Shown here: positions 6,460-57,276 of the stretch, piece after piece
Numbering within the stretch: the stretch's first letter is position 1
Layout: each line of letters starts with the position of its first letter
Assembly: GCA_036172245.1 (NCBI GenBank)
Contig: JAYWIR010000076.1
Coordinates: 1 to 64,000 of the forward strand
Length of the DNA: 64,000 nt
Source: Raillietiella orientalis
Lineage: Eukaryota
Direction of reading: 5' to 3'
Program-made: the position numbers and the translations under genes
Notes under the pieces: generated by a model
Databases searched by the model: none
The model's input: only the letters and a program-made list of their open reading frames with translations
Told to the model about the DNA's origin: nothing

Positions 6460-8021
6460 ACGTCCAGGAGATCGAAACCATCGCGGGGGGTCGGCTGTAC
6501 TGGCAATGCGCCATCCGCAACACCTACAAAGTCCCGTTCTTCGTGAAGCCGGCCATCGACGCTGCCGTGAAGGGCGTGCGCTTCGATGACGACGGTCGGG
6601 TCGGTCAGCTCACTCTCAGCTGGTCCGACTCGATCGAATTGATCGTCACGAACGTGTACGCCCCAAGCGGGAAAGGGGGATACAGCGACCGTACCAGGTT
6701 GCTGGAAACCCTGAAGCGCGATTGGCTGGCCGACAGAATTGTGCGGAAGGCACACCTGATAGCTGGAGACTTTAATCTCCGTCTGCTGTCAGGTGAGCCC
6801 GAAGCACAAGAACGCACGGTCAACGAGTTGTGCGCTGCCATGCGCACGCGCAACTTGTTGGCGGACGCGGAGGGAATGGACCGCATCATCGATTACTTCT
6901 TCCTGGATGCCGACCTGTGCTCACGGGTCGGCAAACGGGGGAAAGTTGCGTCGACGCTGTCGAACCATTCCAGGATAATCGCCGAGGTTTGCTCGCGCGA
7001 CAAAGGACCCCCGTCCAGAGCGTGGCGGCTGCCTGGGGACTGGACGCGGATCTCAGGTGCGAAGAAACACCTTCGCGAATTCCTGAGAGCAGTCACACTC
7101 CTCAGTCTCAAAGATTGGGACCTCTTCAAGGCCTCGGTCCGCGAGTTCTGTGAGGAGTTCCCCCTGCACCACCTGCACCCCGGATTTGGGGAGGGGGCTC
7201 GGAACCATAGGGCCTATATACAGGCTCGCCGGTACGAGAGGACCCCCAATGTCCGTCGCCTGGCCGAATATCGAGCCGGGGCCGAGCGCCAAGCCTGGCA
7301 ATCCGGGTCGGTTAGCTTGCTGGACGACCAGGGCTGGGAGCAATCGGCCCCACCCGCGATCAGGCACCTCGTGCGGCATAACTATTCCTCCCTCTACGCT
7401 AGGGCACCCCCAGAGCGGGACGCATCGCGGCTCCTGCTTCCGGACGGAGCCCCGGCAATGGGGGAGGAAGGGAGGATCAGCCTCGACGAGCCTCTTTCCA
7501 CCGGTGAAATTCTCGCCGGTATTAAAAGGCTCAAGAGGCGTAAGGCGCCAGGGGAGGACGGCCTGCCTGCGGAATTCTTTCAATGCTTCGCAGCAGAGCT
7601 GGCCCCCTTGTGCTTTAGTTGACCGGGCTAATCCGAGACGAAGGCGACGCTCCCGCCTCGTTTCGGTCAGCCCGTGTGAGGCTCCTCACGAAGGGAGAAG
7701 ACCTGAGATCCTTAGGCAACTGACGTCCGATCACAATTGTGAATACGGACGCCAATCTGGTCGCTAAACTGTGGGCTTCGCGTCTAGCACAGGTGGCAGA
7801 TTCCATAATTAGCCCGGAGCAGACCTACGCTGTTCCCGGGCGAATTATGGATGCCAACCTGTTCTTCGCGAGCACATGGTTCCATGTGCAGCGCTGCCTA
7901 AGCGACAGTGGCGGAAAGATTGGCAACCCCACTTTAAGGCCGCCAGCTAAGCTAAGAATGGACACCCGGGCTGGGAAGGGGGCCGTAGCGATCGCGGTCG
8001 ATCTCCATAAGGCGTTCGATT
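6460..8021 (+). pseudogene. Family A ORF2, endonuclease to first half of RT
   Basis: NVYAP, GDFN, KAPGEDG, RPITIVNTD, EQTYAVPGR, DLHKAFD. Confidence 0.9.
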
Positions 8022-8237
8022 CTCACCCGAATTTCGCCGGGGCGTTTATTGTAAAATAAACATTTACAAAGACGTGCGGTGGCTGGACCATTGCTCCAGC
8101 CACGCACGAAGGAACACAGAGCCTGCCGGGACACCGGTTCGCAGACCGGCACGGTCCACCACGGCATCAGGGGGAAGGGGAAAAAACAAAAAACAAAACA
8201 AAAGGAAAAGAAAAAACTGGCAGGGTACAGGAAGGGA

Positions 8238-10242
8238 TCACTGTAGCTGGTGAAGCCGTTGCATCCTTTGCAGGATGCCGGCAAGCTCTTGCTGTATGCT
8301 TGGATCCAGGTGGGGCCTTCGCGGCGCTCTCCTCAGGAACTGAGAGGCTGGCTGGATGGCACCCTGGTCGCGTTGTCCTCCCGTAGCCTTGCACCAAGCG
8401 AAGACGATCGCGCGTAGGCAGCACAAAGCTGCTAACGAGGGCGCTGGCCGAAGAGCGTCAGCAACGAAGAGGGCTTTCAGTGCGTCCTTGGGGTTGTCGC
8501 AGCGTATTCCGATGGCCGCGGCAAAGCGAAACCAGAGGGGCCGAAGGGCAACACAATCCACTGGCAGGTGGGGTAGGGAGTCCCGTTCCCCAGACCTGAC
8601 GCAATTGGGGTCCACCTCTCCCCAGGTCCAGTGGTTTCGGCGGGCGTTGCAGGGGAGTCCCCAGTGCTGCAACAGGAATGAGGACTACTGCCATTTTTAG
8701 GGGAGGGTGGAGGTGTTCATTAGTACCGGGGGCCACTTCAAACGTTCATTGGGAACGTCGAGCAGCGCGCTTCAGCGAAGAAGTCCATAGGGAGGCGTAC
8801 TCGGGGTGGCAGCGTCAGTTAGCTGACCCGTCTTCCACTCTCCTATCTTCTCCTTTCCGGAGATTGTAACTGAAACCTCCCACTTCGCCGCAACATCGCT
8901 GTCCAGATCTTCCATCAGGGAGGGCAGCGCAGCAGAGAGTGGGGTTCTTCCTGCACACGCTCTTTTCTTTGGATCCTCCAGGATCTCGCATAGCGTGCAA
9001 CTTCTGTAACCCCCAAACATCAACCTTCGTTGGGAGCGTTGCATGCCGAACTGTCCTCTCGTTCGAACGGCTTCCTGCAACCAGGCACTACCGTTCAAAG
9101 GGAGACAGGTGAACAATCCTGGGTTTTTCCGGTACAGCGGGGCCACCCTCCGTAGCTGGAGTCCGCATCGGTTGACGCGGCGATGGAGTGCAAGAAACGA
9201 CGTCAGTCCCGTCTTTCCGGTGGCTTGCTGGAGAAGGAGACGTGCAGCGACGCACCAACAGGTGCACCACAACTCTGGAACGAGTGCCGACAATCGGAAC
9301 TGGATCTGAAGCTCCAGCCGCTCCGGCGTCAGGAGGCCCAGACCACCGTTTCGACGAGGAGCGCACAAGTCCTTTAAGCGGACACGGGCCCTCCCGTTGC
9401 CCCAAAAAGCGATACAGAGGAGGTCCTTTGTCCGCTTTTTAATTCTCTCTGTGGAGGGGCAAAGAAAAAGCAGGGGGCGGAAAAGAGTAGCCGCGAACTT
9501 CTTCCAAACCGCGGACCGTTCAGGCAGGAAAAACCTGCCGCCTCGGAACGGGCTGATCGCCGCCTCTACTTTTTCAAATCAGCAGGACCACGCTTCCGCA
9601 GGGGAGTATTGTTTCAACGGCACACCAAGGTACTTGAAGTACCTCACCGTGATGATCCCCAAACGGACCCAGTCCTGCTGCCCTGCCCACGCCGTACCAA
9701 CTGGCATCACGGACGACTTCGCCCTGTTCACCGTAAGTCCGGTTCCCCGATACAGCAGGTCGAAGAACTCCTCGACCACCTCAGCCGGGGTGGACATAGG
9801 GAGCAGCAGCGGAAGGTCGTCCGCGTACGCTGAAACGGCCGGCGTACCAGCACAGTGGTGCGGCAGGTGCGCCAGAGTTCCCCTGTACGCTCTCAGTACC
9901 AACTCAAAGTAGGTACTGAAGAGCAAGGGACTCAGGCTGTCTCCCTGCAGGATCCCACGCCGCACCGGCACGCCGTGCACGGTCTGCCCGCTGAAAGTAA
10001 CGTTGATGAGCGCGTCGCGCCAGCAGGAGCGCAGATAGGCCACTAATGAGGCCGGGAAGCCCAAGCGTTCCAGAAGCTCCAGAAGGAGATTCTGGTCGAC
10101 GCAATCGAATGCTTTCCGCAAGTCGATTGCGACCGCAAGGGCTCCCTCCCCCACCCGACCATCCAACCCTTGCCGGAGCACGCACCGGAATTCCGGCTGC
10201 GCACCAAGCTCCTTTCATGTTGGAGCTCTAGCCAGGTGGAAG
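8238..10242 (-). pseudogene. Family B ORF2, RT second half + C-terminal domain, disrupted
   Basis: IDLRKAFD, GILQGDSLSP, YADD, YLGVP; closely similar to 51600-53627. Confidence 0.9.
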
Positions 10243-13200
10243 TTTCCACGCGGTCACGCCGGGGCGTTTATCGCTAAACACTATGTTTTCGCGATTCCCC
10301 GCTACGGCCAATAGTTCTTTGGACCTGCCGGGAAGCCGGCTCGCAGAGCAGCTTGACTCTCCTCGGTAGCGGAGGGGGTAGGGGGTAAAAACTAAAAGAT
10401 AAATAAAAGGAATAAACGAAAAGAAACTATTTGAGGGGCCGGGAATGGATCACAGTCCGCTGGAGGAAGAGACCATCCTTTCTAGGATGCCCTCGAGGTC
10501 CCTCTTCATTGTTCCCAGATGGGTACAGCCGATCGCGTTTTGCAGGTTTCGACCAGCGTGTACGATGGGATCCCTGTCGCTGCTTCCTCTGTTGGCTGCG
10601 CTGCACGCGGCCACAATCCCTCGGAGGCAGCAAAGTGCTGCCAGGGCTGAGGCTGGTGTCAGGGCGTGCCGCACGAAGAGGAGTCTCATAACGTCTCTGG
10701 GGGTGCTGCCTACCGGCATTGAATGGTTCGTAGCAAAACGTTCCCACAAGGGCCGGAGGGCACCGCAGTCCACGAACAGATGGGGGAGGGATTGCTTCTC
10801 CCCGCACACTGCGCATTTCTGTTCAACATTCCCCCACGTCCAGTGGTGGCGGCGTGCGTTGCAGGGAAGACCCCAGTGCAACAACAACAGCGCCGTTTCC
10901 TGCCACTTTAGGGGTAGGATTGATGAATCAATGAACGACGGGGGCCACTCTAGGTCATCCGTCGGGATGCCAAGCAGCTCGCCCCATCTCCGTAGTCCAT
11001 GTGGGTGAATTCTTGGGGTTGCGGCGTCTGCCAGTTCCCTCATGGTCCACCCGCTTAGATTCTTCTCCTTGCCCGCTATCCTGCAGGATACTTGCCATCT
11101 CGGCTTCCGAATATTTTGGAGCGCCCTCCGTAGGAAGGGCAGCGCCGTGGCCAGTGGGGTCGTCTCCGCCCAAGTGCTTCTGGCGGGACACTCGAGCATG
11201 TTCCGCAGCGTGCAGCGGGTGTAGATGCCGGTAAGCAGGCCGTTGCAAAATTCTTCACTGATATTGTTTATCTTTGCCCAAGTTCCAACTGTTTCTTCCA
11301 GCCATGCGCTGGAGTTGGCAGGGCTGCAGGTCATCCACGCGTTCTCCTTTGCCAGGGTGGCCATGCGTACCAGGAGAAGTCCATCTTCTTTTTTTCCGGC
11401 CGGGGCACAGAAGAAAAGACGTGGATCCTTCAGTCCCGGACACACGTCTGGCGAGAAGGCGGGCCGGTACGCACCACGGGGTGTTCCACATATTCGCTGC
11501 GATGGCTAGAGTACGCCACCGCAGTTGTGTTTCCATTCACTCCATCGTCAGGACTCTGAAACCTCCGTCCCGACGTGGAGCGCACAATTCTTTTAAAGTC
11601 ACACGAGGCCTTCCGCCGCCCCACAGGGCGATACGTAGGAGGTCCTTCGTTCTTTTTCTTAATTCACGGGATACGGGGCAAACAAAAAGCAGGGAGCGAA
11701 GGAGGGGGGCCGCGAACGCGTTCCACACCGCGGTTCTCACAGCAAACGTCGGTTGAGAACACTCCCGACGACGCTGGTGACGGCGAAGACTGGCAGACGG
11801 TACAGCCACGAAGAAAACACGGGCGTCCCGAACGAAACGCGGTGAAAACAAAAACGAAGCGCGAAAAACCGTGCCGCGCAATGCTCCGCGCGTGTTCGGT
11901 AAAATTAGAACGTGTGGAGGCACCCGATGCCGCCTCCGGGGGAGCAATCCTTCCCCTCGCGTCCGCCGAAGCCGCGACGGTCGATGGTAAAAGCTCTGGC
12001 GAAACAGAGGGGGAACCGCGCGCCGCGCTCGACGCTATCGAGGAGGCCGCCTTCCAGCAGGCGGTGGAAGAACTCACGGCTGAACTGCAAGGCCGTGAAA
12101 AGAACTCGCGAAAAGGCTTGCAAAGGCCGGCCGCGAGGAAGGCTCCGGAGGCAGGTGAGGCCGATCCGGACGTCGAAAGTGCGTCCTCTTCAGCGGAGGC
12201 GCCACCAAAGAAGACGGGACGTAAGTCTCAGAATCCCAGGAGGCGCATCCGGATCAACAAGGAGGCGGATGAATCGGCCCCCGAGGGGGAAGCCGGCAGC
12301 GTGGGGGGCGAGGGTGGGAATATCTCATTCCCCGACACCGTGCAGCTAGCGACCCCCATGGAGGAGGATGTGCAGGTGGGTGAACCCCTACTTCCTCTAC
12401 AAGGCCCCGACGACGAATCGTCCTCCATGGAGGAGAGAGAAGCGGTGCGTAACGCACCCCCTCCTCCTAGCGTCCCTCCCGACAAGGTGGCGGGAGCCCC
12501 ATTGCCAATTTCCCAGGATTAACACCTGGACTCGCCTGTCGCCGTAGGATACGCGTAGCCTGCTGGAACGTCAACGGGCTGCGCGATGACGGCAACAGGC
12601 GGGACACGGACGACATCCTGCGTGACTTCGACCTGGCACTCCTGCAGGAGATCCACGTGATCACCGTGGAGAACGCCCAGGAGATCGAAAGGATCGCAGG
12701 GGGTCGTCTGTTTTGGCAATGCGGCGCTCGCAACACCTGTGGCGTCGCTTTTTTTATGAAGCCAGCGGTCGCTTCCTTCGTGAAGGACGTAGGATTCGAC
12801 AAGGACGGTCGGGTTGGCCAGCTTATCCTTACGTGGTCCGACTCGATGGACCTTGTCGTGACTAATGTGTACGCTCCGAGCGGAGGACGCGGGTACGGGG
12901 AACGTTCCCGGTTGCTCGAAACCCTGAAGCGCGACTGGCTGGCGGATACAAACGTACGCAAGGCACATCTGATCGGTGGGGATTTCAACATCCGCCTGCT
13001 CTCAGGTGTGCCTTGCAGGCAAAAAGACGCAACCAACGAGTTGTGCGCCGCTATGCGTACGCGCAACTTGCTGGGAGACCTACCGGAAATGGCCCAAAGC
13101 GTAGACCACGTCTTTCTTGACGCCGACCTGTGCCCACGTGTCGGCAGACGAGCGAAACTTCCGTCGACGCTATCGGACCACTTCCGGTTGATAATCGAAA

Positions 13201-14627
13201 TTATGTCACGCGACAAAGGACCACCATCCAGGGCGTGGCGTATGCCAGGGGACTGGACGCGCATCTCCGGTGCGGCGGAACATCTCCGTCAGTTCCTGAG
13301 AGGCGTCATCCTCCGCAACCTCGAAGACTGGGACCGCATGAAGGTCTCGGTCCGCGAGTTCTGCGAGGATTTCCCTTTGCACCGCCTGCCCCAAGGATTT
13401 GGTGAAGGGGCCCGAAACGAAAGGGCGTATTTGCACTCCCGTCGTTTCGCAAGGACCCCTGACATCCGTCGCTTGGCGGAATACAAAGCCGGGGCCGAGC
13501 GTCAAGCATGGCAAACCGGAACGCCCATCGTGCTAAACGATTTGGACCAGGAACACTCGGAGCCGGCTTCGATACGTCGCCTCGTGCGCGGATTTTACTC
13601 CTCTCTCTACGCAGGGGCACCTGCGGAGTGGAACGCTTCGCAGCGCCTGCTTCCAGATGGAGCCACGGTCATAGATGAGGAGGAGAAAGAAAGCCTCGAC
13701 AAGCCTTTTACGACCGGGGAAATCATCACCGCGATGAAAAGGCTTAAAAGGCGTAAGGCGCCAGGGAAGGACGGCCTGCCGGCGGAGTTCTTTCAGTGCT
13801 TCGTCGTAGAGCTGACCTCCCTGGTGCTCAAATTGACATCGCTGATCCGAGACCAATAGGAGGTTCCTTCCTCGTTTCGGACAGCCAGGGTGAGGCTCCA
13901 TTCTAAGGGAGGAGACCTTAGGAAATTAAGCAACTGGTGTCCGATCACCATAGTGAACACGTACGACAAGCTGCTGGCCGGAATGTGGGCTGCGCGGCTG
14001 GGACAGGTAGCTGACAGCTTCGTCAGCCCGGAACAGACGTACGCTGTTCCCGGGCGAAGCATGGAAGCGAACCTGTTCTTCGCCAGCACATGGTTCAATC
14101 TACAATACGAAGAAAAAGAGAAGAAAAAAAGAATAAAATGACGACAAACCTAATTTGGGTACGCCAGTGCGGCAAACCAGGGACTGCCGGGAAGGGAAGG
14201 GGGCTTTAGCGATCGCAGTCGATCTGCACAAAGCGTTCGATTACGTGGACCAGAAACTCCTTCTGGAGCTCCTGGATCGCATGGGCTTCCCGGACACTTT
14301 ACTGGGTTATTTGCGAGCCTGCTGGCGCAATGCGATCATTAACGTATTTTTTAGAGTACAGCATGTGTTCGGCGTACCGGTGAAACGCTGCATCCGGAGG
14401 GGAGACACCCTGAGTCCCCTACTCTTCAGCACCTATTTCGAACTGGTGCTGAGAGCATACAGGGTGACATTGGCTGCCCTGCCAAGCTCGTGTCCAGGAA
14501 AGCCGGGCGTGTCGGCGTACACTGACGATCTTTTGCTCCTGCTGCCCATGTCCGCCAAGGATTCGGCAGTCGAAGATTTCTTCGAATTGTTGAGCCATGG
14601 AACAGGACTACAGGTGAACAGGACGAT
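10243..14627 (-). mobile_element. Tx1-like element, family D type, 5'-truncated with 5' inversion (3' part 10243-11732 on minus; inverted part 11740-14627 on plus)
   Basis: Flanked by perfect 12-bp direct repeat GCCAGGTGGAAG (10231-10242, 14628-14639); 3' hairpin 10271-10243. Confidence 0.88.
12519..14627 (+). pseudogene. ORF2 endonuclease + RT (inverted segment), disrupted
   Basis: WNVNG, LLQE, GGDFN, SDH, KAPGKDG, DLHKAFD, YTDD. Confidence 0.9.
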
Positions 14628-16055
14628 GCCAGGTGGAAGCGTGGAACAGGATCGCCTCCATGCTTCGTCATATGCAGCATGTGTCAGTTCCGTGCTAAGG
14701 AAGATGTTGGCAACCCGTCCCAACCTCTCTGCTTAAACCTTAGCTAGCAACTTGGCGTCCGCATTCACTATTGTGATGACACGGCAGTTGTTCATGCTCC
14801 TGAGATCTCCTCCCTTAGGGAGGAGCCGCACCTTTGCCCAACGAAACGAGGCGCGAACGTCAACTGTCTCGCGTATCAGCAAGGTGAGTTGCAGTACCAG
14901 GAGGGTGAGCTCAGCCGCGAAAGCTTAGTTTAACTCCGCGGGCAGGCCGTCCTCTCCTGGAGCCTTGCGCCTCTTGAGATTTCCGATGGACCAGAGGATC
15001 TCGTTCAGCGTGAAAGGCTCGTCGAAGGTCTTTCTCTCCTCCTCCCCGGTCGCTGGAGCGCTTTCCAGAAGCAGGAGTCGTGAGACGTTCCTCTCCGGAG
15101 GTGCAGTGGCATACAGGGAGGAGTAGTAACTCAACAGCAGGCCGCGGATTTGGGCGGGTGCCGAGTGCTCCTGGCCCTGATCGTCAGGGAAGGTGGCCGA
15201 ACCGGACTGCCAAGCATGCCTCTCGGCTCCCGCTTTGTATTCCGCCAGCCTGCGGATGTCAGGGGTCCTGGCGTAACGACGGACCTGCAGGTAGGCTCGT
15301 TCGTTACGGACCCCAGTCCCAAAACCCGTAGGTAGGTGGTGCAGAAAGAACTGGTCGCAGAACTCCTGGACCGATCGCTTGAAGCGGTCCCAATCCTGGA
15401 GTGTCCGCAGCCTGAAGCTCCGTATGAACGTGCGAAGATGTTACGCTACGTCCAAAAGCTTCCGCCAGTCCCCTGGGAGATGCCACGCTGACGAGGGGGG
15501 GCCCCTGTCGCGCGGATGGATCTCAAGGACTAGCGGGCGATGGTCGGACAGCTCGGCGGTAACTTGCCGCGCCTGCCCAAGCGAGGGCACAGGTGCTCGT
15601 CAAGAAACACGTGGTCAATGCTGTCCTCCATCCTCAGTGCACTGACCAACAAATTACAGGTGTGCACTGCCATGCACACCTCGTTGACGAGGTCACGCTT
15701 CTTTTTCTGCCCATCTGGTTTCAGGCGAACGTTAAAAGCGCCTGCAACCAGATGGGCATTCCGCACGCCTACTCCGATCAGCCAGTCGCGCCGGAGGGCA
15801 AGGAAAAACTCTTTCCTCGCCCTCCTGTTGATCAGATCCGCGCCGCTCGGTGCGTACACGTTTGTGACGATCAGATCGATCGAGTCGGACCACCTGAAAG
15901 TCAGCTGGCCGACACGACCGTGATCGTCGAACCGTACGCTCCGAGCCGCGGCCCCGACAGCTGGCCGAAGCAGGTAGGCGACACCGCAACTTTTCGGTCT
16001 CCCACACCTGTACCATAACCGCCCTCCGGTGATCCGTTCGATCTCCCGGTCTCGT
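14628..16055 (-). pseudogene. Family B ORF2, endonuclease to start of RT, disrupted
   Basis: YAPSG..FNVRLKPDGQKKKR..SDH..KAPGEDG..NADAKLLAKV; homologous to 44600-45593. Confidence 0.88.
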
Positions 16056-16169
16056 ACAGTACAGACGTGTTTCCGCGTCTATCCGCGCCAACGATGGGGC
16101 AACTTTGTGCCTGCGTTTTTGCTCGCACTTGTGTGTTCCTGTGCAATCTGCCAAGTAGCATAGTGCAAC

Positions 16170-21000: not shown

Positions 21001-21190
21001 GATTGTCGCAACCATGTTTTGCGTTCGCGCTATTGCGAAGGCCCGCTACGCCCTGGAGTTTTCAGCGCAGCGAAGGGAGGCTCACCTGCTTGCAGCTCAA
21101 TTCATGGAGAAAGCTGCATGGTGGTCTCATCTCCGTGACAAGATGAATGAGTTCATCATCGGGATACATCGCCGGTTTACAGACCTTTGA
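18074..21190 (+). pseudogene. Family F ORF2 (EN with internal deletion near 18230, RT, C-terminal domain)
   Basis: NVNG, SDH, KAPGEDG, WRPITLVNSD, DLHKAFD, YADN, CLRCGEIQSFPHLLLNC. Confidence 0.88.
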
Positions 21191-44590: not shown

Positions 44591-45799
44591 TTTCAAAAAA
44601 TTTCAACGTTCGCCTGAAACCAGATGGGCAGAAAAAGAAGCGTGACCTCGTCAACGAGGTGTGCATGGCGGTGCACACCTGTAATTTGTTGGCCAGTGCA
44701 CCGGGGATGGAAGACAGCATTGACCACGTGTTTCTTCACGAGCACCTGTGCCCTCGCGTGGGCAGGCGCGGCAAGTTACCGTGCGAGCTGTCCGACCATC
44801 GCCCGCTAGTCCTCGAGATCCATCCGCGCGACAGGGGCCCCCACTTGTCAGCGAGACGTCTCCCAGGGGACTGGCTGAAGCTCCCGGACGCGGCTAAACA
44901 TCTCCGCACTTTCATACGGAGCTTGAGGCTGCGGAAATTACAGGATTGGAACCGCTTCAAGCGGTCGGTCCAGGAGTTCTGCGACCAGTTCCCTCTGCAC
45001 CGCCTACCTACGGGTTTTGGGACCGGGATCCGTAACGAACGAGCCTACCTGCAGGCCCGTCGTTACGCCAGGACCTCCGACATCCGCAGGCTGGCGGAAT
45101 ACAAAGCGCGATCCGAGAGGCAATCCTGGCAGTCCGGTTCGGCCACCTTCCTGGACGACCAGGGCCAGGAGCACTCGGCACCCGCCCAAATCCGCGGCCT
45201 GCTGCGGAGTTACTACTCCTCCCTGTATGCCAGAGCACCTCCGGAGAGGAACGTCTCACGACTCCTGCTTTTTGAAGGCGCTTCAGCGATCGGAAAGGAG
45301 GAGAGAAAGACCCTCGAGAGCCATTCACGATGGACGAGATCCTCTCGGCCATCGGAAAGCTCAAGAAACGCAAGGCTCCAGGGGAGGACGGCATGCCCGC
45401 AAAGTTTTAACAACTTTCGCGGCTGAGCTTACCCCCTTGTTACAGCAACTCACCATGCTGATACGAGAGACAGGTGACGTTCTCGCCTAGTTTCGTTCGG
45501 CAAAGGTGCGGTTCCTCCCTAAGGGAGGAGATCTGAGGAGCATGAAGAACCGGCGTCCCATCACAACAGTGAATGCGGACGCCAAGTTGCTGGTTGCCAC
45601 CCGGTCACGCCGGGGCGTTTATTAAAAATTCTCTTTGATTCGTGGTACGATGCCCCACTACGGCCAACTCAACTGGACCTGCCGGGTCGCCGGTACGCAG
45701 ACCAGCGCGACTCTCCTCGGCAGCGGAAGGGGGTGGGGAAAAAAACAAAAAGAAAAATAAAACATAAAAACAAAAAGATTTGGGAGGGTTGGGGAGGGA

Positions 45800-48700
45800 T
45801 CACTGACCACTGGGAGGAGGGTCCATCCTTCGCAGGATGACCTCGAGGTCCGTCCGTGTAATTCCCAGTTGGAGCCATCTGGTCACAATCCGCAGGTAGC
45901 GGACTGCAAGTACGACGGCATCCCTGTCGTGGCTCGGTCTTCTGACAGTGCTCCAGCACGTCACAATCCCGCGTACGCAGCAAAGTGCAGCCAGGGTAGC
46001 GGCTGGACGCAGGGCATCATGCACGAACAGAAGCCGAAAAACGTCCTTGGGCTGGCTGCCCTCCTGGAACCGTAGGGAGGCACGAAGACGTTCCCACAGG
46101 GGTCGGAGGGCAGCACAATCAACGAGGAGGTGGGGGAGGGTTTCCCGTTGCCCACACCTGATGCAGGTAGGATCTACTCGACCCCTGGTCCAGTGGTGAC
46201 GGCGTGCGTTGCAGGGTGGACCCCAATGCAACAACAGAAGCGCCGACTCCTGCCACTTTAGGGGGAGGATCCTAGAACCAATTAATACCGGGGGCCACTT
46301 CAGGTCATCCGGCTGGATGCCGAGTAGCTCACCCCATCTCTGGAGTCCTCTCGGCTGGACACTAGGGCTACTGGCGTCCGCCAGTTCACCCGTGGACCAG
46401 CCGCTGATCAACTTCTCCTTGCCTGCGATGCGGCAGGAGACTTGCCACCGAGGCTTGCGGCTGCTGGAGAGCGCCCTCCTCAGTTAGGGCATCGCCGTAG
46501 CTAGGGGGGTTGTCTCTGCCCACGTGCTTCTCGCGGGACACTGGAGTATCTTCCGCAGAGTGCAGCGGGAATAAGCGCCGCGTCGCAGGCAGTTCCACAT
46601 CTCTCCGTTCTTCTGGTTTATCGTCGCCCACGTGCCCGCTGTCTCCTCCAGCCATGCGGAAGAGTTCGCGGGGCTGCATACCATCCAGCCGCTTTCCTTC
46701 GCCAGAGTTGCCATGCGTCCAAGGAGAAGTCCGCATCTCTTGAACTTCTTGCCACGGCAGAGAAGACAGGACGCGAGACCCTCCGTCCCGGATACACGGC
46801 TGGCAAGCAGTCGGGCCGGAACGCACCAAGGGGTGCTCCATAACTTCGCTGCGATGGCAAGGGTTCGCCACCGCAGCTGAATCTCTACTCGCCCCATCGT
46901 CAAGAGGCCGAGAACGCCATCCCGACGTGGAGAACACAAGTCCTTCAACGGGACTCGGGGCCTCCCTCTTCCCCAAAGGGCAATTCTCAGGAGGTCCTTT
47001 GTCCGTTTTTTCAACTCTCTGGGGACGGGGCAAACAAATAGCAGGGGGCGGAGTATAGGAGCCGCGAACGCGTTCCATACCGCGGCCCGTTCCGGAAGGA
47101 GAAACTTGTCTTCCAGGAACGGGCCGATCGCCGTTTCCACTTTTTGGAGACAGCCGGACCACGCTTCCGCAGGGGAGTAGTCCCCCAACGACACACCAAG
47201 GTACTTCAAGCACCTCGCCGTGGGGATTCCCAAGCAACCCAGTCCTGCTGCCCAGCCCACTCCGCACCGACTGGAACCACCATCGACTTCGCCCTGTTCA
47301 CCGTAAGTCCGGTCCCGCGTCTGAGCAGATAGAAGAAATCCCCGACCGCCTTCGCCGGGGTGGACATCGGCAACAGAAGCAAAAGATCGTCGGCGTATGC
47401 TGCAACGGCGGGCGTGCCGGGGCACGAGCTCGGCTAGGGGGCCAAAGTCACCCTGTACGCTCTCAGCACCAACTCAAAGTGGGTGCTAAAGAACAGGGGA
47501 CTGAGGCAGTCGCCCTGCCGTATGCCCCGCCGTACCGGCACTCCGTACGCCATTTGACCTTTGAAAGAGATATCGATCAGCGCGCTGCGCCAGCAAGAGC
47601 GCAGATAGGTCAGTAGGGAGAGAGGGAAGAACATGCGTCCCAGGAGCTCCAGCAGGAGATCCTGGTCCACGCAGTCAAACGCTTTGTGCAGATCGACTGC
47701 GATCGCTAGGGCTCCCTTCCCCACCTGGGAGTCCTGTCCCTGCCCGGCTGACGCCCCCAAAGCGGGGCTGCCAATCCTTCCCTCTTCCTTTTCTTGACTA
47801 CCCTGCACATGAAACCATGTGCTCGCGAAGGAGAGGTTGGCCTCCATACTTCGCCCGGAAACAGCGTAAGTCTGCTCCGGGCTAATTATGGAATTGGCCA
47901 CCTGCCCCAGACGCGAAGCCCACAGTCCGGCGATCAACTTGGCATCCGTGTTTACAATTGTGATCGGACGCCAGTTGCTGAGTTTCCTGAGGTCTCCTCC
48001 TTTCGGAAGGAGCCTCACTCTGGCTGACCGAAACGAGGCGGGTACATCGCCTTCATCTCGGATGAGCCTTGTCAACTCAAGCACCAGGGGTGCCAACTCT
48101 GCCGCGAAGCATTGAAAAAACTCCGCAGGCAGGCCGTCCTCCCCTGGTGCTTTCCGCCTCTTGAGCCTTTTGATACCGACGAGAATTTCGCCGGTGGTAA
48201 AAGGCTCGTCGAGGCTTTCCTTCTCCTCCTCCCCTATTGCCGTGGCACCGTTCGGAAGCAAGCGCCGAGAGGCATCTTGGTCCGGGGGCGCCCTGGAGTA
48301 AAGGGACAAATAAAAACGCCGCACGAAGTGCCGTATTCTAGCCGGAGCCGAGTGCTCCCGGTCCTGGTCGTCCAACAAGCTTGCCGATCCGGATTGCCAG
48401 GCTTGACGTTCGGCCCCGGCTCGGTACTCTGCCAGGCGACGGACATTGGGGGTCCTCGCGTAACCACGGGCATACAAGTACGCTCGTTCGTTACGGATGC
48501 CCTCCCCAAATCCCCGGGGCAGGAGGTGCAAGGGGAACTCCTCGCAAAACTCGCGGACCGAGGCCTTAAAAAGGTCGCAATCATTGAGACTGCGGAGGGT
48601 GACGCCTCTCAGGAATTCGCGAAGGTGTTCCTTCGCACATGAGAGTCGCGTCCAGTCCCCAGGCAGACGCCACGCCCTCGATGGGGGGCCCTTGTCGCGC

Positions 48701-49400
48701 GGGCACACTTCGAATATCAACCGGAAATGGTCAGACAGCTCCGCCGCAACTTTCCCTCGTTTGCCGACCCGTGAACACAGGTCGACATCCAGGAAGACGT
48801 GGTCGATGCTGCTGACCATTTCCGAAAGATCCCCTAACAAGTTGCGCGTGCGCATGGCGGCGCACAACTCGTTAGCCGTCCGTTCCTGTGCGTGTGGCTC
48901 ACCTGATAGCAGGCGGAGATTAAAGTCTCCCGCTATCAGGTGAGCCACGCGCACGTTCGCTTCCGCCAGCCAGTCGCGCTTCAGGGTTTCCAGGAACGCC
49001 TTACGTTCCTGGTACCTGGTAGGACCGCTCGGAGCGTACACATTTGTTACGACGAGGTCGATCGTGTCGGACCACCTGAGAATCAGCTGGCCGACACGAC
49101 CGGCTTCGTCGAAGTGCACGCCCTTCACGGCTGCGTCGACTGCCGGCTTCATAAAAAACGCGACGCCGCAGGTGTATCGGGTGCCGCATTGCCACATCAG
49201 CCGTCCCCCTGCGATCCTTTCGATCTCCTGGGCGTTCTCCGCGGTGATCACGTGGATCTCCTGCAGGAGTGCCAGGTCGAAGTCACGCAGGGTGGCGGCC
49301 GTGTCCCGTCTGTTGCCGTCGTCGCGCAGCCCGTTCACGTTCCAGCAGGCGACGCGTAATCGACGGCGACAGGCGAGCCCAGGTGTTACTCCTGGGAAAG
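45800..49400 (-). pseudogene. Family D ORF2 (AP endonuclease, RT, C-terminal Cys/His domain, ~1200 codons); in-frame stops at 47434 and 46484
   Basis: ORFs 47434-49524, 46484-47425 and 45800-46411 are in one frame; all canonical EN and RT motifs are present. Confidence 0.93.
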
Positions 49401-51398
49401 TGGCAATGGGGCTCCCGCCACCTGGTAGGGCGGGACGGATGGAGGCATGGGGGCACCGCCCAGCGGTTCTCCCACCTCCATGGGGGCCGATTCCTCGGCG
49501 GACCGCAACGGTTGAAGGGAGCATGCTTCACGCACCTGCTTCCCCTCTTCCATGGGGGCCGATTCCTCGACTGCGATGGACGGCAGGGGGGAGCGGTTCT
49601 CAGCTGTCTGCTCCCCCTCTTCCATGACCATCTTCTCCGCAGGCTCCACCGGTGGAAGGGGGAGGCAATGCCCTACCTGCTCCCCCTCCTCCATGGGGGT
49701 GGCCGGCTGCTCGGTGGCGGAGGGTGGGAAAATTCCTCCCTCCGTTCCCACGCTGCCGGCTTCCCCTTCGGCTGCCGGTGCGTCCCCCTCGCTCTTCGTC
49801 GGGATGCGCCTCTTGGGATTCTTGGACTTCCGTCCAGTCTTCTTCGGAGGCGCCTCCGTGGAAGAGGACGCACTTCCGGCATCCGGGTCGTGGTCACCTG
49901 TCGGAGGTGCCCTGGTCGCGGCCGGCCTTCGCAAGGCCTTTCGCGCGCCGTTCTCACGGTCGGCGAGTTCGGCCGCGAGCTCTTCCGCCGCCTGCTGGAA
50001 GGAGGCCTCGTCGATCGCGGCGAGCGCGTCGCGCGGTTCCCCCTCTGTTTGCACAGAGGGTTCGCCTTCCGGGATCGCGTTATTGTCGGCGTCGACGCGG
50101 GGGATATCTCCACCGGTGGCGGTCTCGGGTACCTCCACACGCTCCAAAGCGACCGAACATTCGCGGATCAACGCGCGCCGTTGTCTCCTATTTAAAGGAG
50201 ACGTCGCGGGTTCCGCTGTCGATCCTTCGGTTTTCTTTGGTTTTTTAGCTTTAGGCTTCGCCTTCTGCCAGCCTTCGCTCTTTTCGGCGTCGTCGGTAGA
50301 TTCCACTACGGGCGTTTGCTGTACGGGCTCGGGCTCCGCCTGTGGGTTCCGCCTCACGGGCGCCTTCGCAGGGTTTTCCGTAGCCTCCGCGCGTTTCCCT
50401 TTGGCCTTTTTCAAGGCAGCGGGAGCCGGAGGTTCGTGCTTCGGGCACACTTTGCGGAGGAGGCCCTTCTCTCCACAGTGGAAACACTGGATGCGAGGGC
50501 ACCGCTTTTTCAGGTGCCCTTTGGCATCACAGTGTCCACAGTACTTGGGCTTGCCCACGTACCAGACGTCGACGGTCTCGTTGCCGACGTCTAGTTTATG
50601 GGGTAGCCCACCGTTTTCGTGGACGGTTACACGCGCATCAGCCATGCCACTAAACAGTCTTCCGTAACTCTGGAAGACGTTGGTCTTGGGCCATAGCGCG
50701 TGAACCGTTCCGTATTTTCCGAGTTCCTCCTGCACGTCGGCTTTCGACATGCGGAGGGTGACTCCCGTGAGGTGCGTCACCACGGAGCGATCTTCCGTTA
50801 CCGGGAAAACCTTTCGGCCTTCCAGTGTGATTGGTGTATTCAGGAGGTGTTGAGCAAGGCTTGCATTTCTGCAAGTCAGCTCCACCCGCTGACCACCACT
50901 CAACACGGAAAGACCTTCCAGGTCTTCCTATTTTACGTTCAAACGCTGCAACACCCTTTCGAAGTTGCGAGCGGTTTTCCCGACAAACAGATTGCCTACC
51001 TTGTATATCAGGGACGGATTGTATCCCTGCTCCAGGTATGCTTTCTGCTCGGCGAGGGCTGCAGGAGATGGGGCTGCAGCCACTGAACTCCAGGTCTTCC
51101 GCGATGCTGAAGACGCATTCGAGGGTGCAGGTGCCCCCTTTTTCAAGGAGGCGGTTGAGCCCTTTTCCAGGGTTGCGGTTGTACCCTTTTTCAAGGGGGC
51201 GGTTGCACCCTGTTCCAGCGGGGCTATTGCCCCCTTTTTCAAGGGGGCCTTTGCCATCGCTTCCGAGGTGGCGGTTGCCCCCTTTTTCAGGGGTGCGGCT
51301 GCCGTCGCCTCCGTGGGATCGATTGCCCCCACCTCCGTGCGTTGGGGAGAGGAGCAAGCCCCTCCCCCTCCTATATCCATCGCGGTGTCCTCGGGCAT
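49386..51398 (-). pseudogene. Family D ORF1 (two zinc knuckles, acidic repeat tail); one in-frame stop at 50928
   Basis: ORFs 50928-51398 and 49386-50906 are in the same frame; CGHCDAKGHLKKRC, CFHCGEKG. Confidence 0.9.
51128..51300 (-). repeat. 24-bp tandem repeat (about 7 units, APLKKGAT-like) in ORF1 N-terminus
   Basis: Recurrent GCCCCCTTTTTCAAGG at 24-nt spacing. Confidence 0.85.
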
Positions 51399-53846
51399 TT
51401 ATGCCATTGGACACCGCAGATGCTCAACACACAAACACAAAAGAAACCAAACGCTTTACACCAGGCGCGGAGGAGCGCTACAAAAACACGTACGCACGCC
51501 AAGTTGCTGGCTAAGGTTTGGGCAGAGCTTCTGGGACGGGTTGCCAACATCTGCATCAGCCCGGAACAGACATGCTGTTCCCAAGCGAAGCATGGAGGCG
51601 AACCTGTTCCACGCTTCCACCTGGCTAGAGCTCCAACATGAAAGGAGCTTGGTGCGCAGCCGGAATTCCGGTGCGTGCGCCGGCAAGGGGTTGGAAGGTC
51701 ATGTGGGGGAGGGAGCCCTTGCGGTCGCAATCGACTTGCGGAAAGCATTCAATTGCGTCGACCAGAATCTCCTTCTGGAGCTTCTGGAACGCTTGGGCTT
51801 CGCGGCCTGATTAGTGGCCTATCTGCGCTCCTGCTGGCGCCACGCGCACATCAATGTTACTTTCAGCGGGCAGACCGTGCACGGCGTGCCGGTGCGACGT
51901 GGGATCCGGCAGGGAGACAGCCTGAGCCCCTTGCTCTTCAGTACTTACTTTGAGTTGGTACTGAGAGCGTACAGGGGAACTCTGGCGCACCTGCCGCACG
52001 ACTGTACCGGTACGCCGGCCGTTTCAGCATACGCGGACGACCTTCTGCTGCTGCTCCCTATGTCAACCTTGGCTGCGGCGGTCGAGGAGTTCTTCGACCT
52101 GCTGCATCGTGGAACCGGACTTACGGTGAACAGGGCGAAGTCGTTCGTGATGCCACTTGGTGCGTCGTGGGCAGGGCAGCAGGACTGGGTCCGTTTGGGG
52201 ATCATCACGGTGAGGTACTTCAAGTACCTTGGTGTACCGTTGGGGGACTACTCCCCTGCGGAAGCGTGGTCCGGCTGCCTCCAAAAAGTAGAGACGGCGA
52301 TCGGCCCGTTCCGAGGCGGCAGGTTTTTCCCGCCTGAACCGGCCGCGGTTTGGAACACGTTCGCGGCTCCTCTCCTCCGTTCCCTGCTTTTTGTTTGCTC
52401 CCCCACAGAGAGGATCAAAAAGCGGACGAAGGACCTCCTCCGTATCGCCCTTTGGGGCAACGGGAGGGCCCGAGTCCGCTTAAAGGACTTGTGCGCTTCT
52501 CGTCGGGATGGTAGTCTGGGCCTCCTGATACTGGAGCGGCTGGAGCTTCAGCTCCAGTTCTGATTGTCGGCACTTGTTCCAGAGTTGTGGTGCACCTGTT
52601 GGTGCGTCCCTGCACGTCTCCTTCTCCAGCAAGCCACCGGCAAGACGGGACTGACGTCGTTTCTTGCACTCCGTCGCCGCGTCAACCGATGCGGACTCCA
52701 GCTAAGAAGGGTGGCTGCGCTGTATCGGAAAAACCCAGGATTGTTCACCTGTCGACCGTTTAACGGTAGTGCCTGGTTGCAGGAAACCGTTCGAACGTGG
52801 GGACAGTTCGGCATGCAACGCGCTCAACAGGAACGTAGGTTCCCGTCAGGGGGTTAAAGAAGTTGCACGTTCCGCGAGATTCTGGAGAATCCAAAGAAGA
52901 GAGCGTGGGCAGGAAGAACCCCCCTCGCTGCTGCTCTGCTCTCCCTGATGGAAGATCTGGACAGCGATGTTGCGGCGAAGTGGGCGGTTACAGTAACAAT
53001 CTCCGGAAAGGAGAAGAAGGTAGGAGAGTGGAAGACGGGCCAGTTAACAGACACTGCAACCCCGAGTACGCCTCCCAAAGGACTTCTGCGCTGGGGCGCG
53101 CTGCTCGATGTTCCCATTGAACATCTGAAGTGGTCCCCGGTGCTCATGAACACTTCCGCCCTCCCCTGAAGATGGCAGGAGTCGGCTTTCCTGTTGCAGC
53201 ACTGGGGAATCCCCTGCAACGCCCGTCGACACCACTGGACCTGGGGAGCATGGGACCCCAATTGATTCAGGTGTGGGGAACGGGAATCCCTCCCCCACCT
53301 GCTAGTGTATTGTGTTGCCCCTCGGCCCCTTTGGTTTCGCTTTGCCGCGGCCATCGGTACCCCCTGCGGCAACCCCAGGGACGCACTGAAAGCCCTCTTC
53401 GTTGCCGACGTCCTTCGGCCAGTGGCCTCGTTAGCAGATTTGTGCTGCCTACGCGGGATCGTCACCGCTTGGAGCAAGGCTACGGGAGGACAACGCGACC
53501 TGGGTGCCATCCAGACAGCTTCCCAGTTCCTGAGGAGGGCGTCCTGATGGCCCCACCTGGATCCAGGAATACAGAAGCAGCTTGCCGGCATCCTGCAAAG
53601 GATGCAACGGCCCCACCAGCAACTGTGATCCCTTCCCTTACCCTCCCAACTTTTCTTTTCTCTTTTGTTTTGTTTTTTGTTTTACCCCCTTTTCCCTGCT
53701 GCCGTGGTGGACCGTGCCGGTCTGCGAACCGGTGACCCGGCAGGCTCTGTGTTTCTTCGTGCGTTGCTGGAGCAATGGTCCAGCCACCGCACGTCTTTGT
53801 AATAGTTTATTTTCCAATAAACGCCCCGGCGAAATCTGGGTGAAAA

Positions 53847-55815
53847 TCGATGGCCGGCTTCACGAAGAACGCGACCTCGCAGGTATTGCGGATGCCGCAT
53901 TGCCAGTACAGCCGACCCCCCGCGATCGTCTCGATCTCCTGGACGTCTGCCGCGGTGATCACGTGGATCAGTTGCAACAGGGCCAGGTCGAACTTCCGCT
54001 GGTTGTCTGTTGTATCTCGCCTGTTACCGTCGTCGCGGAGCCCGTTGACATTCCAACAGGCGGCGCGAATCCGACGGCGACTGGCTAGCCCAGGTGTTAC
54101 TCCTGGGAAGATGGCAGTGCGGCGTCCGCCACCTGCTGAGGCGGGACGCTAGGTGGAGGAGCGGGGTCAGGTGCTGAAGGCACCTGGTCCCCCTCCTCCA
54201 TAGGAAACTGTACGTCGAGCGAGTCACCCATAGGTGGGGTCGCGCCTACCTGTTCGCCCTCCTCCTTGGGGGCGGGCTGTTCAGGGTCGGCGCCTGCAGG
54301 GAGGACTTTACCTCCCTGTTCACCCTCCTCCATGGGGGTGGCCGGATCGACGGCTTCCGAGCGTGGGAATTCCTCCTCCGAATTTCCCACGCTGGCGACG
54401 GCTTCCGTCTTCTCCTCCTCGCTGGTGGAGGGGAGGCGCCTCCTGGGCTTTTGGGACTTGCGTCCCGACTTCCTGGGGGGTGCCTGCGAGGAGGAGGATC
54501 TACTTCCGGCCCCCAGGTCTAACTCACCTGTGGAAGCTTTCTTCGCCGGAGCCGGCCTACGCACGGCCTTGCGCGAGGGGTTCTCACGCTCGGCCAGCGG
54601 AAACGGCAAGGGGAGGATCGACGCTCCGGGTGGCAATGTCGGGAACGACGATTCGTTCCAGTGCCACGGTGCATTCGCGCAAATTTTTCGAGCGCGGACC
54701 GGGTTTTTTCGGCTTACCGGCCGTCTTGCGCTCTTTGCTCTCCGCGGGTGGGAGTTTCCTTGGCTTTCTGGCCTCTACAAGCTGCCATCCCTCTTCGCCT
54801 TCCACCGTTTCAGAAGGTCTATCCTCTGGCTTACGCGCCGGAGGTTGAGGTGTTGGCAGCTTGTGCTGGCCCTTTTCTACTTTAGGTCTAGAGACCTTTG
54901 AAGCGCGTTTCCCCTGCGCTTTTTTCGCGGCATGGGGAACCGGGATGAGGCGTTTGGGGCACACGCGCCGAACGTGGCCCCGCTCCCCGCACAAATGGCA
55001 TTGTATATTGGGACACCTTTTACGTAGGTGTCCCACGGTATCACAATGCTTGCAATACCGGGGCTTCCCTACATACCACAGGTCGACGTTTTCTTGCGCC
55101 ACCTGTAGTTTGTGGGGAAGCCCACAATTCTCCCTTACGGTGACCCGCGCTGCAGCCTGCCCACCAAAAAGGCTATCGAAGCCGTCGAAAATGGAGGGTT
55201 TCGGCCACAGTGCGTGCACCTCACCGTACTTCCGTAATTCCTCACCAACCGCTGACCGCGGCATGCGGCTGGTGATGCCAGTCATGTGGACCACCACGGA
55301 GCGGTCCATTGATACTGGCAGGATCTTGCGGCCGTCTACGTTCCGCGGCACATGGATTAGGCGGTGAGCCAAGGTGACATCTTTGCAGACCATCTCGATC
55401 TGCTGCCCGCCGCTGAGGACGGAGAGGCCGTCCAGATCCTTCTCAGTAACATTCGCGTCCTTCAACGCTTTGCTGAAGGCGCGCGCTGTCCGGCCGTCGA
55501 ACAGGTTGCCTACCTGGTAGACTAGCGATTGCTTGTACCCGGAGGCCTTGTATGCGGCCATCTCCGCCATGGCTTCTGCGCTGGTCGCGGCCACCATGGC
55601 GCTCCATGTCTTCGGCGTGGCCGGGGATCATTCCGGGGCGGCTGCCCCTGCTCCAGTAGGCTGTGCGGGCGAACTAGCCTCCCCCACTCCCACCTATATC
55701 GCGGTGTCCTCTGGCGTCGTGGCCATTGGACACCGACGATATACACAAAACACCACACACAAGAAAGCGCTTTCCTACTTCTCTTTGAGGAGTGAAGGAA
55801 AAACACGTCCTCCAA
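53847..55815 (-). mobile_element. Tx1-like element, family A, 5' end, ORF1 (55726-54097, one frameshift/deletion) and start of EN
   Basis: 5' motif 55810-55801; CKHCDTVGHLRKRC, CHLCGERGHVRRVC; WNVNG; cut at FVKPAID. Confidence 0.92.
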
Positions 55816-57260
55816 CTAGCCTCGGACGGGTCTGGCTGCAACGATGCAGCCAGCTCCCCCGCCGCACGCTCGAAGGCGGCGTCATCGATCACGGTCTCCA
55901 TGACGGACGCTTCCGTTGGTTCGCTCCCCACGCTGTTGACATTTTCAACAGTGCTCGTCGGTAGCAGCGATTTCTACCTTGCGGCGTTCGGCGGGAACGC
56001 GTTTTACGACGACGCTGCATTCTTTTAAATTCTCGCTAACCTGCTGCTTTTGATTTTGGTGAGCGAGCTTTTTTTCAATTCGTCGTTCTTTCTTCGACTT
56101 TTCCTTTTTCGCTGTGGCTACTTGCCATTCCGGCATCTGTGCGCTTTTGTCGATCTTTTCGGCATTCGTTGTTGGGGTGTCGGCTGCGGCCTGGACCACG
56201 GGTGTGGGTGGCACAGCTTGAGCAGCAGCCTTCGCCGCCAGCCTTTTCTGTAGCAGCCGCGCGCGTTTTGTAAGGTTCCTTGCGGAAACCACGCGCACAG
56301 CGGATTGTGGATACACTTCCTTCGTGTGGTCCATTGTCCCGCTTACCTGGCACTGTATGTTGGGGCACCTCCTTTTGAGGTGCCCCGACGTACAGTGCCA
56401 GGTATGCAGAAGCCACAGTATGTGGGCTTCCCCACGTTCCAGAGGTCGACGCTTTCTTCGCCGACCACCTGTTTGTAGGGAAGGGTAGAGCCCTCCCGAA
56501 CGGTTACACGGGCAGCCGTGAGGCCGCACTGAACTGTGGTATAGTCCTCGAAAGGACTAGGCTTGGTCCATACTGCATGGACCGTGCCTTCTTTTCCCAA
56601 CTTGGCTCGTAACTGTTCTTTCCGCATCCGCGCGGTAACTCCTAAAAGGTGGACCAACATACTGTGGTCCGCCGTAATGGGAAAAAGCCTGCGTGTCTCC
56701 ATTACCACGGAGAATTTGAGCAGACGTTGGGACAGATCTGCATGTTTGCAGATCACCTCTACGTACTGCCCCCCGCTACGAATGGTCATAGCGCAAAACT
56801 CCTCCTCTTTAACATCGAGAGCGCTCATTTCCTTCGAAAAGGCGAACGCACTCTCAGAAGAAAACAAATTTCCTACCTTGTAGAATAGTGATGGGTTATA
56901 CCCCTCTTCCACATAGGCAGATAATTCCGCCGCAGCTGCAGGCGATGGCGCCGACACGACGGCGCTGCACGCCCGCGCTGACGCGAAGACCGGTTTTGTG
57001 GGGGCGGACGCCATACCTCCTTCGCCACTGGAGGCGACGTTGCCGCCACCCCCTGGCACTCCACCTTCTCTAGAGGCGACGTTGCCGCCGCCACCTGGCA
57101 CTCCATTTCTTCAGGAGGCGACGTAACCACCGCCTTCTCACACGCACTGGTGGTCGTGTCAGGCATTCCTGCCTGATCGACCACCACCACACGCGAAGCC
57201 TACTCCTAGGGACGGTTTCCAGCATGAGGAGCATCGAGGAAACACGTCCGTTCTAACCGA
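55816..57260 (-). mobile_element. Tx1-like element, family B, 5' end and partial ORF1
   Basis: 5' motif 57249-57240; AAELSAYVEEGYNP..; cut at LQPDPSEAS. Confidence 0.9.
57025..57135 (-). repeat. 42-bp tandem repeat (about 3 units) in family B ORF1 N-terminus
   Basis: GAGGCGACGT at 57031, 57073 and 57115. Confidence 0.9.
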
Positions 57261-57276
57261 CGTAAAGCTTTCGATT

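Follow-up and report, generated by a model that had tools for sequence, protein, structure and literature searches.

Target-specific long interspersed elements (LINEs) are known for ribosomal RNA, small nuclear RNA and transfer RNA genes, microsatellites, telomeres and some transposons. Homing endonuclease genes, inteins and group II introns sit in conserved catalytic motifs, including motifs of polymerases. Here we describe a family of LINEs, designated hereafter as family B, from a stretch of 64 000 nucleotides of Raillietiella orientalis DNA (GenBank assembly GCA_036172245.1, contig JAYWIR010000076.1, positions 1 to 64 000 of the forward strand; 'the window'). The window is a nest of decayed copies of related retrotransposons that lack long terminal repeats (LTRs), in which copies of family B were found antisense in the codons for (H/R)KAFD, motif A of the reverse transcriptase (RT), of other LINEs. 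Family B is probably (at about 0.68) a target-specific LINE of known kind with a strong preference for these codons. It would resemble homing endonuclease genes, inteins and group II introns in homing to a conserved motif, and differ from them in that the motif belongs to the polymerase gene of a selfish element and not to a host gene.

Target-specific LINEs with an apurinic/apyrimidinic-like endonuclease (APE) are placed mostly in the Tx1 and R1 clades, and their targets include transposons (Kojima and Jurka, 2015, PMC4640811). Families of the Tx1 clade, which is found in animals, take piggyBac, Mariner, Harbinger and LTR elements as their targets and show target-site duplications (TSDs) of ~16 bp and tandem copies around the TSD (Kojima, 2015, PMC4494074). 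The cases named in these sources are Tx1L in Tx1D piggyBac, Tx1-Mar in Mariner-N4_AMi, Tx1-8_Crp and Tx1-4_AMi in LTR retrotransposons and Tx1-9_AMi in Harbinger (PMC4494074, PMC4640811). Tandem copies sandwiching a 16-bp TSD in Tx1-mobilised elements were attributed to sequential insertions into one target (PMC4494074), and work cited in the same paper indicated that co-transcribed target sequence strengthens target-specific integration. In insertion behaviour, rather than by RT phylogeny, family B appears to match these Tx1-type LINEs as they are described there: it is also an L1-group APE LINE, it enters another transposon at one sequence and in one orientation only, with a TSD of ~16 bp, two of its copies (B3 and B4) form a tandem in which the B3 3′ end, positions 57261-57276 and the B4 5′ end sandwich one TSD, and the logic of a multicopy safe harbour would be the same. 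The difference from the Tx1 cases described lies in the target, which is the stretch encoding RT motif A in other LINEs, near relatives of B among them, and not a DNA transposon, LTR element, RNA gene or microsatellite.

Nested insertion into their own existing copies, giving clusters made of LINEs only, has been described for the L1-like green algal LINEs Zepp and ZeppL (Craig et al., 2021, PMC8226300). The window is similar in that its catalogued insertions all lie within other LINEs. Whereas the Zepp arrays described are tandem and consist mostly of 3′ ends left by 5′ truncation, the window holds full-length elements (the B copy B1 and the elements R and F) in mixed orientations; B is antisense at one defined codon block, and the passages on Zepp mention no RT-motif target. 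With the R1 and R2 LINEs specific for ribosomal DNA, family B would share homing to a conserved multicopy sequence that is not easily mutated, and precise priming may be helped when the template RNA carries target sequence downstream (PMC4494074). Unlike theirs, the B target is the polymerase gene of another selfish element and not a host gene, and R2 uses a restriction-like endonuclease, not an APE.

The junctions were described relative to element R (45594-51495, minus strand), the most complete copy, in which the KAFD codons lie at ~R3832-3846 and the 3′ end at ~R5930. The marks of B-type ends were, at the 3′ side, the loop GAAAT together with GGGTGARAA and, at the 5′ side, the signature YTAGRR-CGGACGTGTTTYCTCGRTGCTCC. 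An earlier note, made from the letters of the window, had reported five B junctions at (H/R)KAFD codons, and the junction sequences it gave were all recovered at their positions. Aligned with seven uninterrupted KAFD sites, the host at junction J1 is normal up to ...CATAAGGCGTTCGATT (8006-8021) and then gives way to a B-type 3′ end in reverse complement. At J3 the host resumes at 23425 with CACAAGGCGGTCGACTGCGTTGACCAG..., directly after a B 5′ end, the TSD copy being CACAAGGCGGTCGACT (23425-23440). J5 consists of the lone 16-mer CGTAAAGCTTTCGATT (57261-57276) with a B 5′ end before it and a B 3′ end after it. At J4 a degenerate KAFD copy, CCAGGCGTTCTACTGCG (39429-39445, minus strand), continues as AFYCVNRDLFLEFLERLG and adjoins a B 5′ end. 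The histidine codon is used at J1 and J3 (CAT/CAC), and the TSD at J5 carries CGT for arginine, as do the B-like element el1 and the sites that B itself contains. The spacing of 10 nt from CACGTCCG to the H/R codon is exact at both loci for which it had been claimed (23407-23414 to 23425, and 57243-57250 to 57261). That B inserts antisense at the codons for (H/R)KAFD, duplicating 14-16 bp of target, held true for the window. The five junctions stood as positions but did not represent five separate events, as they reduce to four B insertions at three sites, all antisense. The hosts of B include A-type elements as well as B/F-like relatives.

Allowing at most one mismatch, the motif AARGCNKTCGAYT occurs 10 times in the window against 2.5 expected, a count that none of 100 shuffles reached, and each of the 10 corresponds to motif A of an RT. 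Empty sites were confirmed at 46, 10103, 14230, 19340, 47673, 51742 and 59370, in line with the earlier note. Ends of elements were catalogued independently of KAFD: the 5′ motif gave 11 matches, one of which (46036, inside ORF2 of R) was dropped as a chance match, so that 10 5′ ends plus J4, added from the alignments, and nine 3′ ends, all of them used, made up the usable catalogue. Four of the five strict B insertions lie at KAFD (B1, B3, B4 and the copy at J4); the claim of the earlier note failed for B2, the 3′ end of which is at 53846. Adding two B-like elements, el1 and the one at 5468, brings the count to 4/7. None of the nine non-B insertions (R, a 5′-inverted A-type element, F, A1, E5, c25550, c60228 and the elements at 62659 and 40565) lies at KAFD; the codons adjoin two of three strict B-type 3′ ends (two of four with el1), all three B-type 5′ ends and no end of these nine. 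Estimated by hand, the chance that one insertion falls in a given 7-bp window in a given orientation in a host of ~5.9 kb is ~6e-4, and the same hand arithmetic gives ~2e-6 for at least two of four further B events at the same window and orientation. The specificity of B for KAFD is a strong preference, not an absolute one.

The clearest locus is that of B1 in host A1 (Table 1). The left part of A1 is 80% identical in nucleotide sequence to R2286-3846 and corresponds to ORF2 aa 93-619 in tblastn. B1 survives in three minus-strand pieces (8022-10242, 14628-16055 and 21543-23424), which stay collinear both in R coordinates and in the encoded protein. As judged from this order, B1 (8022-23424, minus strand) is one full-length copy of ~5.5 kb, antisense in A1, because the two nested interruptions carry TSDs of their own and B2 shows one of the two sites empty, the uninterrupted site of the nested A-type element being present in B2 at 51614-51625. 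J1 and J3 are accordingly the paired TSD copies that this one insertion left in A1. The nested A-type element runs on the plus strand at 11875-14626 and on the minus strand at 10243-11733, with ~200 bp missing at the inversion junction and a perfect TSD, an anatomy that looks like twin priming. An origin of J1 itself by twin priming was rejected, the two arms coming from different subfamilies. At J5, two tandem B copies lie around one TSD, a known signature of repeated hits on one target (PMC4494074).

The strict B copy that lies elsewhere, B2, has inserted at AAGCCGGCCATCGA, codons KPAID of the APE region of host E5. Its host sense strand reads AAG-CCG-GCC-ATCGA-C, compared with AAG-GCG-TTCGA-T at KAFD, so that the B2 site is a look-alike of the KAFD site with one codon more. 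The TCGA at the B2 junction belongs to the host because intact homologues (62434 and 6548-6559) read GCCGGCCATCGAC; the copy of the site in A1 (6548-6559) is unoccupied. The alternative that J4 is the missing 5′ junction of B2, with the 3′ junction of B2 then a deletion product, was rejected because the J4 host is 60% identical to the right part of A1 and not ~86%, the value to be expected of the other half of E5, and the B part at J4 is 82% identical to B1 and not 90%.

Several observations weigh against a KAFD-specific family B, and three other explanations were considered against them. In the first of these, one ancient B insertion was copied by segmental duplication and blurred by gene conversion or recombination, with no target preference. 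The closest relatives do form pairs in the same relative orientation (A1/E5, 86-88%; B1/B2, 90%; 86-90% over both), so that some segmental duplication is possible, the junction of B ORF1 with an A1-type 5′ end is present twice, and the nest shows deletions: from 39 to 57 kb it has lost the host parts that should lie beyond B2, B4 and E5, so that deletions or rearrangements have taken place there. The TSDs do not discriminate, since J1 and J3 are identical at 13/16 positions and J1 and J5 likewise at 13/16, so that it is the nest structure alone that pairs J1 with J3. Gene conversion among arrayed copies is a formal possibility that could blur any comparison of flanks with elements. Against duplication, however, the host flanks of J3 and J4 are 60.0% identical (129/215, over 220 nt beyond KAFD), far more diverged than the adjoining B copies, which are 81.9% identical over the first 1 kb (767/936) and 72.9% over the first 220 nt (153/210). 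The hosts also differ, as the earlier note had proposed to check: one is A-type with the H codon, one is ERLG-type and one has the R codon, the J3 host being nearest to R (81%, ...LLGRMGFP... type) and the J4 host nearest to the B-type RT region (65-67%, ...LERLG... type). Moreover, the TSD codon is H in one case and R in another, the closest pair, B1 and B2, has different junctions (KAFD and the APE-region site), and, whatever the history, the B-TSD-B order at J5 takes two insertions into one target. A single duplicated junction, which the earlier note had named as the outcome that would undo its claim, is therefore unlikely, and we regard this explanation as a whole as improbable. Still less credible, to the point of being very improbable, is an origin of the junctions in rearrangements at a conserved motif, whether by template switching, by twin priming or by ectopic recombination, and not in insertions. 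A 5′-inverted element of the kind left by twin priming exists at 10243-14627 and conserved motifs offer microhomology, but both termini of B1 are complete and canonical, with a 16-mer duplicated on either side, host and B are of different subfamilies, the left part of A1 being ~67% identical to the homologous part of B1, so that the two arms do not come from one RNA, and the same precise 5′ terminus adjoins KAFD three times.

More weight falls on the explanation that B has a short, loose nick preference (~NCGA^) combined with regional targeting to LINE arrays or heterochromatin, KAFD being a hot spot with no dedicated recognition of 14-16 bp. All four B or B-like 3′ junctions have the nick after CGA on the priming strand, two of them outside KAFD (B2 at 53847 and el1 at ~2386), every catalogued insertion of the window, of whatever family, sits inside another LINE, and seven of the 10 KAFD sites, B's own three included, are empty. 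The copies outside KAFD count in the same direction: B2; el1, whose 3′ end (~2385) falls near aa 396 of an ORF2, in antisense; and the B-like minus-strand element at 5468, antisense in a B ORF1. Yet TCGA and CGA are very frequent in elements of 58-60% GC, and four of five strict B insertions chose the same site and orientation in three host subfamilies; the off-site target of B2, too, resembles KAFD beyond TCGA (AAGSCG...TCGAY). We consider this explanation unlikely. Two further points temper the case for KAFD-specific insertion: the copies are all old, with 73-90% pairwise identity and broken reading frames and no sign of current activity, and the counts cover one window of 64 kb.

The junctions, the TSDs, the constant orientation, the separateness of the three sites and the contrast to non-B elements are seen in the sequence itself; the mechanism is a proposal built on them. 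If family B does recognise the KAFD codons, it would integrate by target-primed reverse transcription. Its endonuclease would nick the host sense strand right after ...AARGCNTTCGA; the strand joined to the B 3′ end would be the host sense strand ...GCGTTCGA-3′, and the cDNA would start with TTCTCACCC. We infer a first nick after TTCGA from this joint of host sense strand and cDNA, although it could be up to two T's further on. The freed 3′-OH would prime cDNA synthesis on B RNA, and priming at a nick in the host sense strand would leave B always antisense to the host, an orientation that would be fixed because the recognised site is asymmetric. A nick in the other strand 14-16 bp upstream would produce the TSD CAYAARGCNTTCGA(TT), and a second hit on one TSD copy would give the tandem B-TSD-B. 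Read-through RNA from a donor in a KAFD site would carry UCGAACGCCUU..., the tail of which could pair with the nicked target, a pairing also proposed for other target-specific LINEs, and so sharpen specificity (TCGA is palindromic), in which case endonuclease and RNA-target pairing may each have a role. Each insertion would split the host RT at its catalytic motif, and the target, present in many copies and not free to change in active LINEs, would be a safe harbour. It is reasonable to suppose that the host cannot easily mutate the target away, and B may gain from this site.

The window may hold a second address. The 5′ ends of A1 (5681, plus strand) and of E5 (55813, minus strand) fall at one and the same position in two B-type ORF1 copies, both in sense (5670-5685, plus strand; 55806-55821, minus strand). 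The comparison points to two independent hits, and so to another family that would have an address of its own within B, because the elements are 88.3% identical (687/778) and the ORF1 flanks 72.8% (142/195); the flank of A1 is nearer to the intact ORF1 of B1 (83.8%). The 5′ end of c25550 follows the A1 3′ end after 12 nt (CCACCGCTGGGC; 25528-25560), a head-to-tail tandem like that at J5; the likeness of this spacer to the B ORF1 site is weak (8/15 identical), and its assignment tentative. A wider reading would join both addresses: an L1/Tx1-like lineage truly homing, antisense, into the KAFD codons of the RT genes of other LINEs, relatives included, splitting the RT of competitors at a target that cannot be mutated, while A1 and E5, and possibly c25550, home to the site in B ORF1. 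This would amount to reciprocal site-specific warfare rather than passive nesting, and we offer it as a possibility about which we are somewhat doubtful.

A LINE addressed to the catalytic-motif codons of other LINEs would, if true, be a new kind of target. In the open-access literature searched for this target and for nested LINE insertion, with repeat-database reports and subscription journals outside its scope, no RT catalytic-motif target was found for a LINE. The harbour would be a renewing one, in that every active LINE must keep its KAFD codons and the target would be replenished while LINEs are active. Each B hit would split, and so inactivate, the RT of a rival, and the growth of LINE-only arrays would be explained. 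It would also be a case of an APE endonuclease reading 14-16 bp, relevant to retrotransposon-based insertion tools for multicopy safe-harbour sites.

Table 1 Parts of the nested LINEs and the insertion-site sequences in the window
Feature	Position	Strand	Remarks
Host A1, left part	5681-8021	+	5′ end GGACGTGTTTC at 5681; extends to KAFD codons; left TSD copy 8006-8021 (CATAAGGCGTTCGATT)
B1, 3′ part	8022-10242	-	3′ end ...AATAAACGCCCCGGCGAAATTCGGGTGAGAA adjoins TCGAACGCCTTATGG, the KAFD reverse complement; 90% identical to B2
A-type element nested in B1, sense	10243-14627	-	5′ part inverted; 12-bp TSD CTTCCACCTGGC at 10231-10242 and 14628-14639
B1, middle part	14628-16055	-	ORF2 aa ~92-556; 90% identical to B2 44601-45591
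F, full-length, more diverged LINE, antisense in B1	16056-21542	+	~15-bp TSD at 16041-16055 and 21543-21557, 10/15 identical
B1, 5′ part	21543-23424	-	ORF2 start, ORF1, 5′ untranslated region (UTR); 5′ terminus CGCTCTAGGG+CGGACGTGTTTTCTCGGTGCTCC
Host A1, right part	23425-25539	+	right TSD copy 23425-23440 (CACAAGGCGGTCGACT) to A-type 3′ end; R3832-5930; ORF2 aa 614 to end
J4 host, diverged RT fragment	39226-39445	-	starts at degenerate KAFD codons; ORF2 aa 615-687, 42% identity, E 4.6e-8
B-type 5′ part at J4	39446-40534	+	5′ UTR and ORF1 aa 1-145; 81.9% identical to B1 5′ part; cut at 40535 by 3′ end of F-like minus-strand element
B2, middle part, 5′-truncated	44590-45593	+	ends in TSD of nested R
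R, full-length A-type, antisense in B2	45594-51495	-	perfect 15-bp TSD ACGCCAAGTTGCTGG (45579-45593, 51496-51510); not at KAFD
B2, 3′ part	51496-53846	+	3′ end ...GGGTGAAAA adjoins TCGATGGCCGGC (53847-53858), host E5 antisense, ORF2 endonuclease (APE) part; not KAFD
E5, 5′ part of A1-like element	53847-55813	-	88% identical to A1; 5′ end at same B-type ORF1 position as that of A1
B4, B-type 5′ part, interrupted by E5	55814-57260	-	5′ terminus TCGGTTAGAA+CGGACGTGTTTCC
KAFD 16-mer CGTAAAGCTTTCGATT	57261-57276	+	single TSD between B4 5′ end and B3 3′ end
B3, 3′ part of B-type copy	57277-60215	-	R3006-5930; 3′ end ...GGGTAAAAA adjoins TCGAAAGCTTTACG
(H/R)KAFD target sequence forms			CAYAARGCNTTCGATT; CAYAARGCNTTCGATTGCG; B's own AAAGCATTCGATT
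B end sequences			3′ ...CCCGGCGAAATNYGGGTGARAA; 5′ YTAGRRCGGACGTGTTTYCTCGRTGCTCC
A1/E5 insertion site in B ORF1			...CCAAGGYYAGTT^

The LINEs of the window are, by their domain matches, APE-type non-LTR retrotransposons of the L1 group. The assignment was made because Exo_endo_phos (E 1.8e-12) and RVT_1 (E 3e-12) were found by Pfam in one frame of 697 aa (47437-49527, minus strand), with other copies in agreement, and because among solved structures the RT region matched human LINE-1 ORF2p with E 4.8e-39 (aa 387-692), far above the R2 proteins (~1e-8 to 1e-9). RVT_1 is carried by many other frames, zf-CCHC was found in two ORF1 copies (24.0 and 22.5 bits, cut-off 20.8), and zf-RVT was weak in two frames (25.4 and 24.0 bits, below the cut-off of 27.5). 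TSDs of 15, ~15 and 12 bp flank R, F and the one 5′-inverted copy present, the A-type element in B1. Two word-indexed protein searches yielded three hits each. In an exhaustive search of protein databases, one relative and one fragment, each of 69% identity, were found, the remainder being at most 41% identical and from mixed taxa; the high score of a turtle protein was due to repeated RT fragments inside one gene model. Compared with a turtle LINE fragment, the RT of these elements carries ~35 extra residues, many of them G, S and Q, immediately upstream of motif A (aa 566-600 of the 697-aa frame). R, the most intact copy, combines this frame with an ORF1 of 513 aa and is inserted at codons ...DAKLLA..., which precede KAFD by ~250 bp; B1 has the corresponding site (~14746) empty.

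All families share the 5′ terminus GGACGTGTTT and a 3′ terminus consisting of AATAAACGCCCCGG, a short inverted repeat and then GGGTGNNAA, without a long A tail. The shared 3′ end has the form AATAAACGCCCCGG-N5-6-CCGGGTGNNAA, with AATAAA 20-25 nt from the end, two to five terminal A's and wobble variants in the inverted repeat. Family B encodes a CCHC knuckle in ORF1 and APE and RT domains in ORF2, and it has the conserved 5′ terminus NNYTAGRR-CGGACGTGTTT and a 3′ terminus of AATAAA, a small hairpin and GGGTGARAA, likewise without a long poly(A). The 3′ hairpin of these LINEs is plausible from the inverted repeat; RNAalifold gave four pairs only, one of them covarying, and single folds had z-scores of -0.15 to -2.2, which are not significant. 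A metagenome scan with the shared 3′ motif returned 120 loci, five of them loosely hairpin-like and none a relative of these LINEs.

In one public sequencing run, the only one that had sequence words in common with the window (share 0.08), 680 contigs were 80-99% identical to 5620-25600 (threshold 80%), most of them below 90%, and the same LINE families are therefore present in at least one other sequenced sample, a relative. At least one of these contigs continues beyond 8019 into CTGCGTGGACCAC, that is, into an uninterrupted KAFD host. A low-depth contig joining 8515 to 23427 (five letters between, depth 2.7) might be a 5′-truncated antisense copy at KAFD and was not counted as evidence.

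The GC content of the window is 55-63% outside a lower-GC stretch at ~27.4-39.2 kb (~44%). Among 53 ORFs of at least 70 aa over 27.3-44.7 kb, the only firm Pfam match within 27400-39200 was an RVT_1 frame at 36191-37330 (plus strand). Between the B fragment at J4 and B2 lies element D (41667-43625, plus strand), a different LINE with APE and RT domains, which shows no cross-hybridisation with R at the DNA level and 27% identity to it at the protein level. The best database relatives of the RVT_1 frame at 36191-37330 are ~30% identical.

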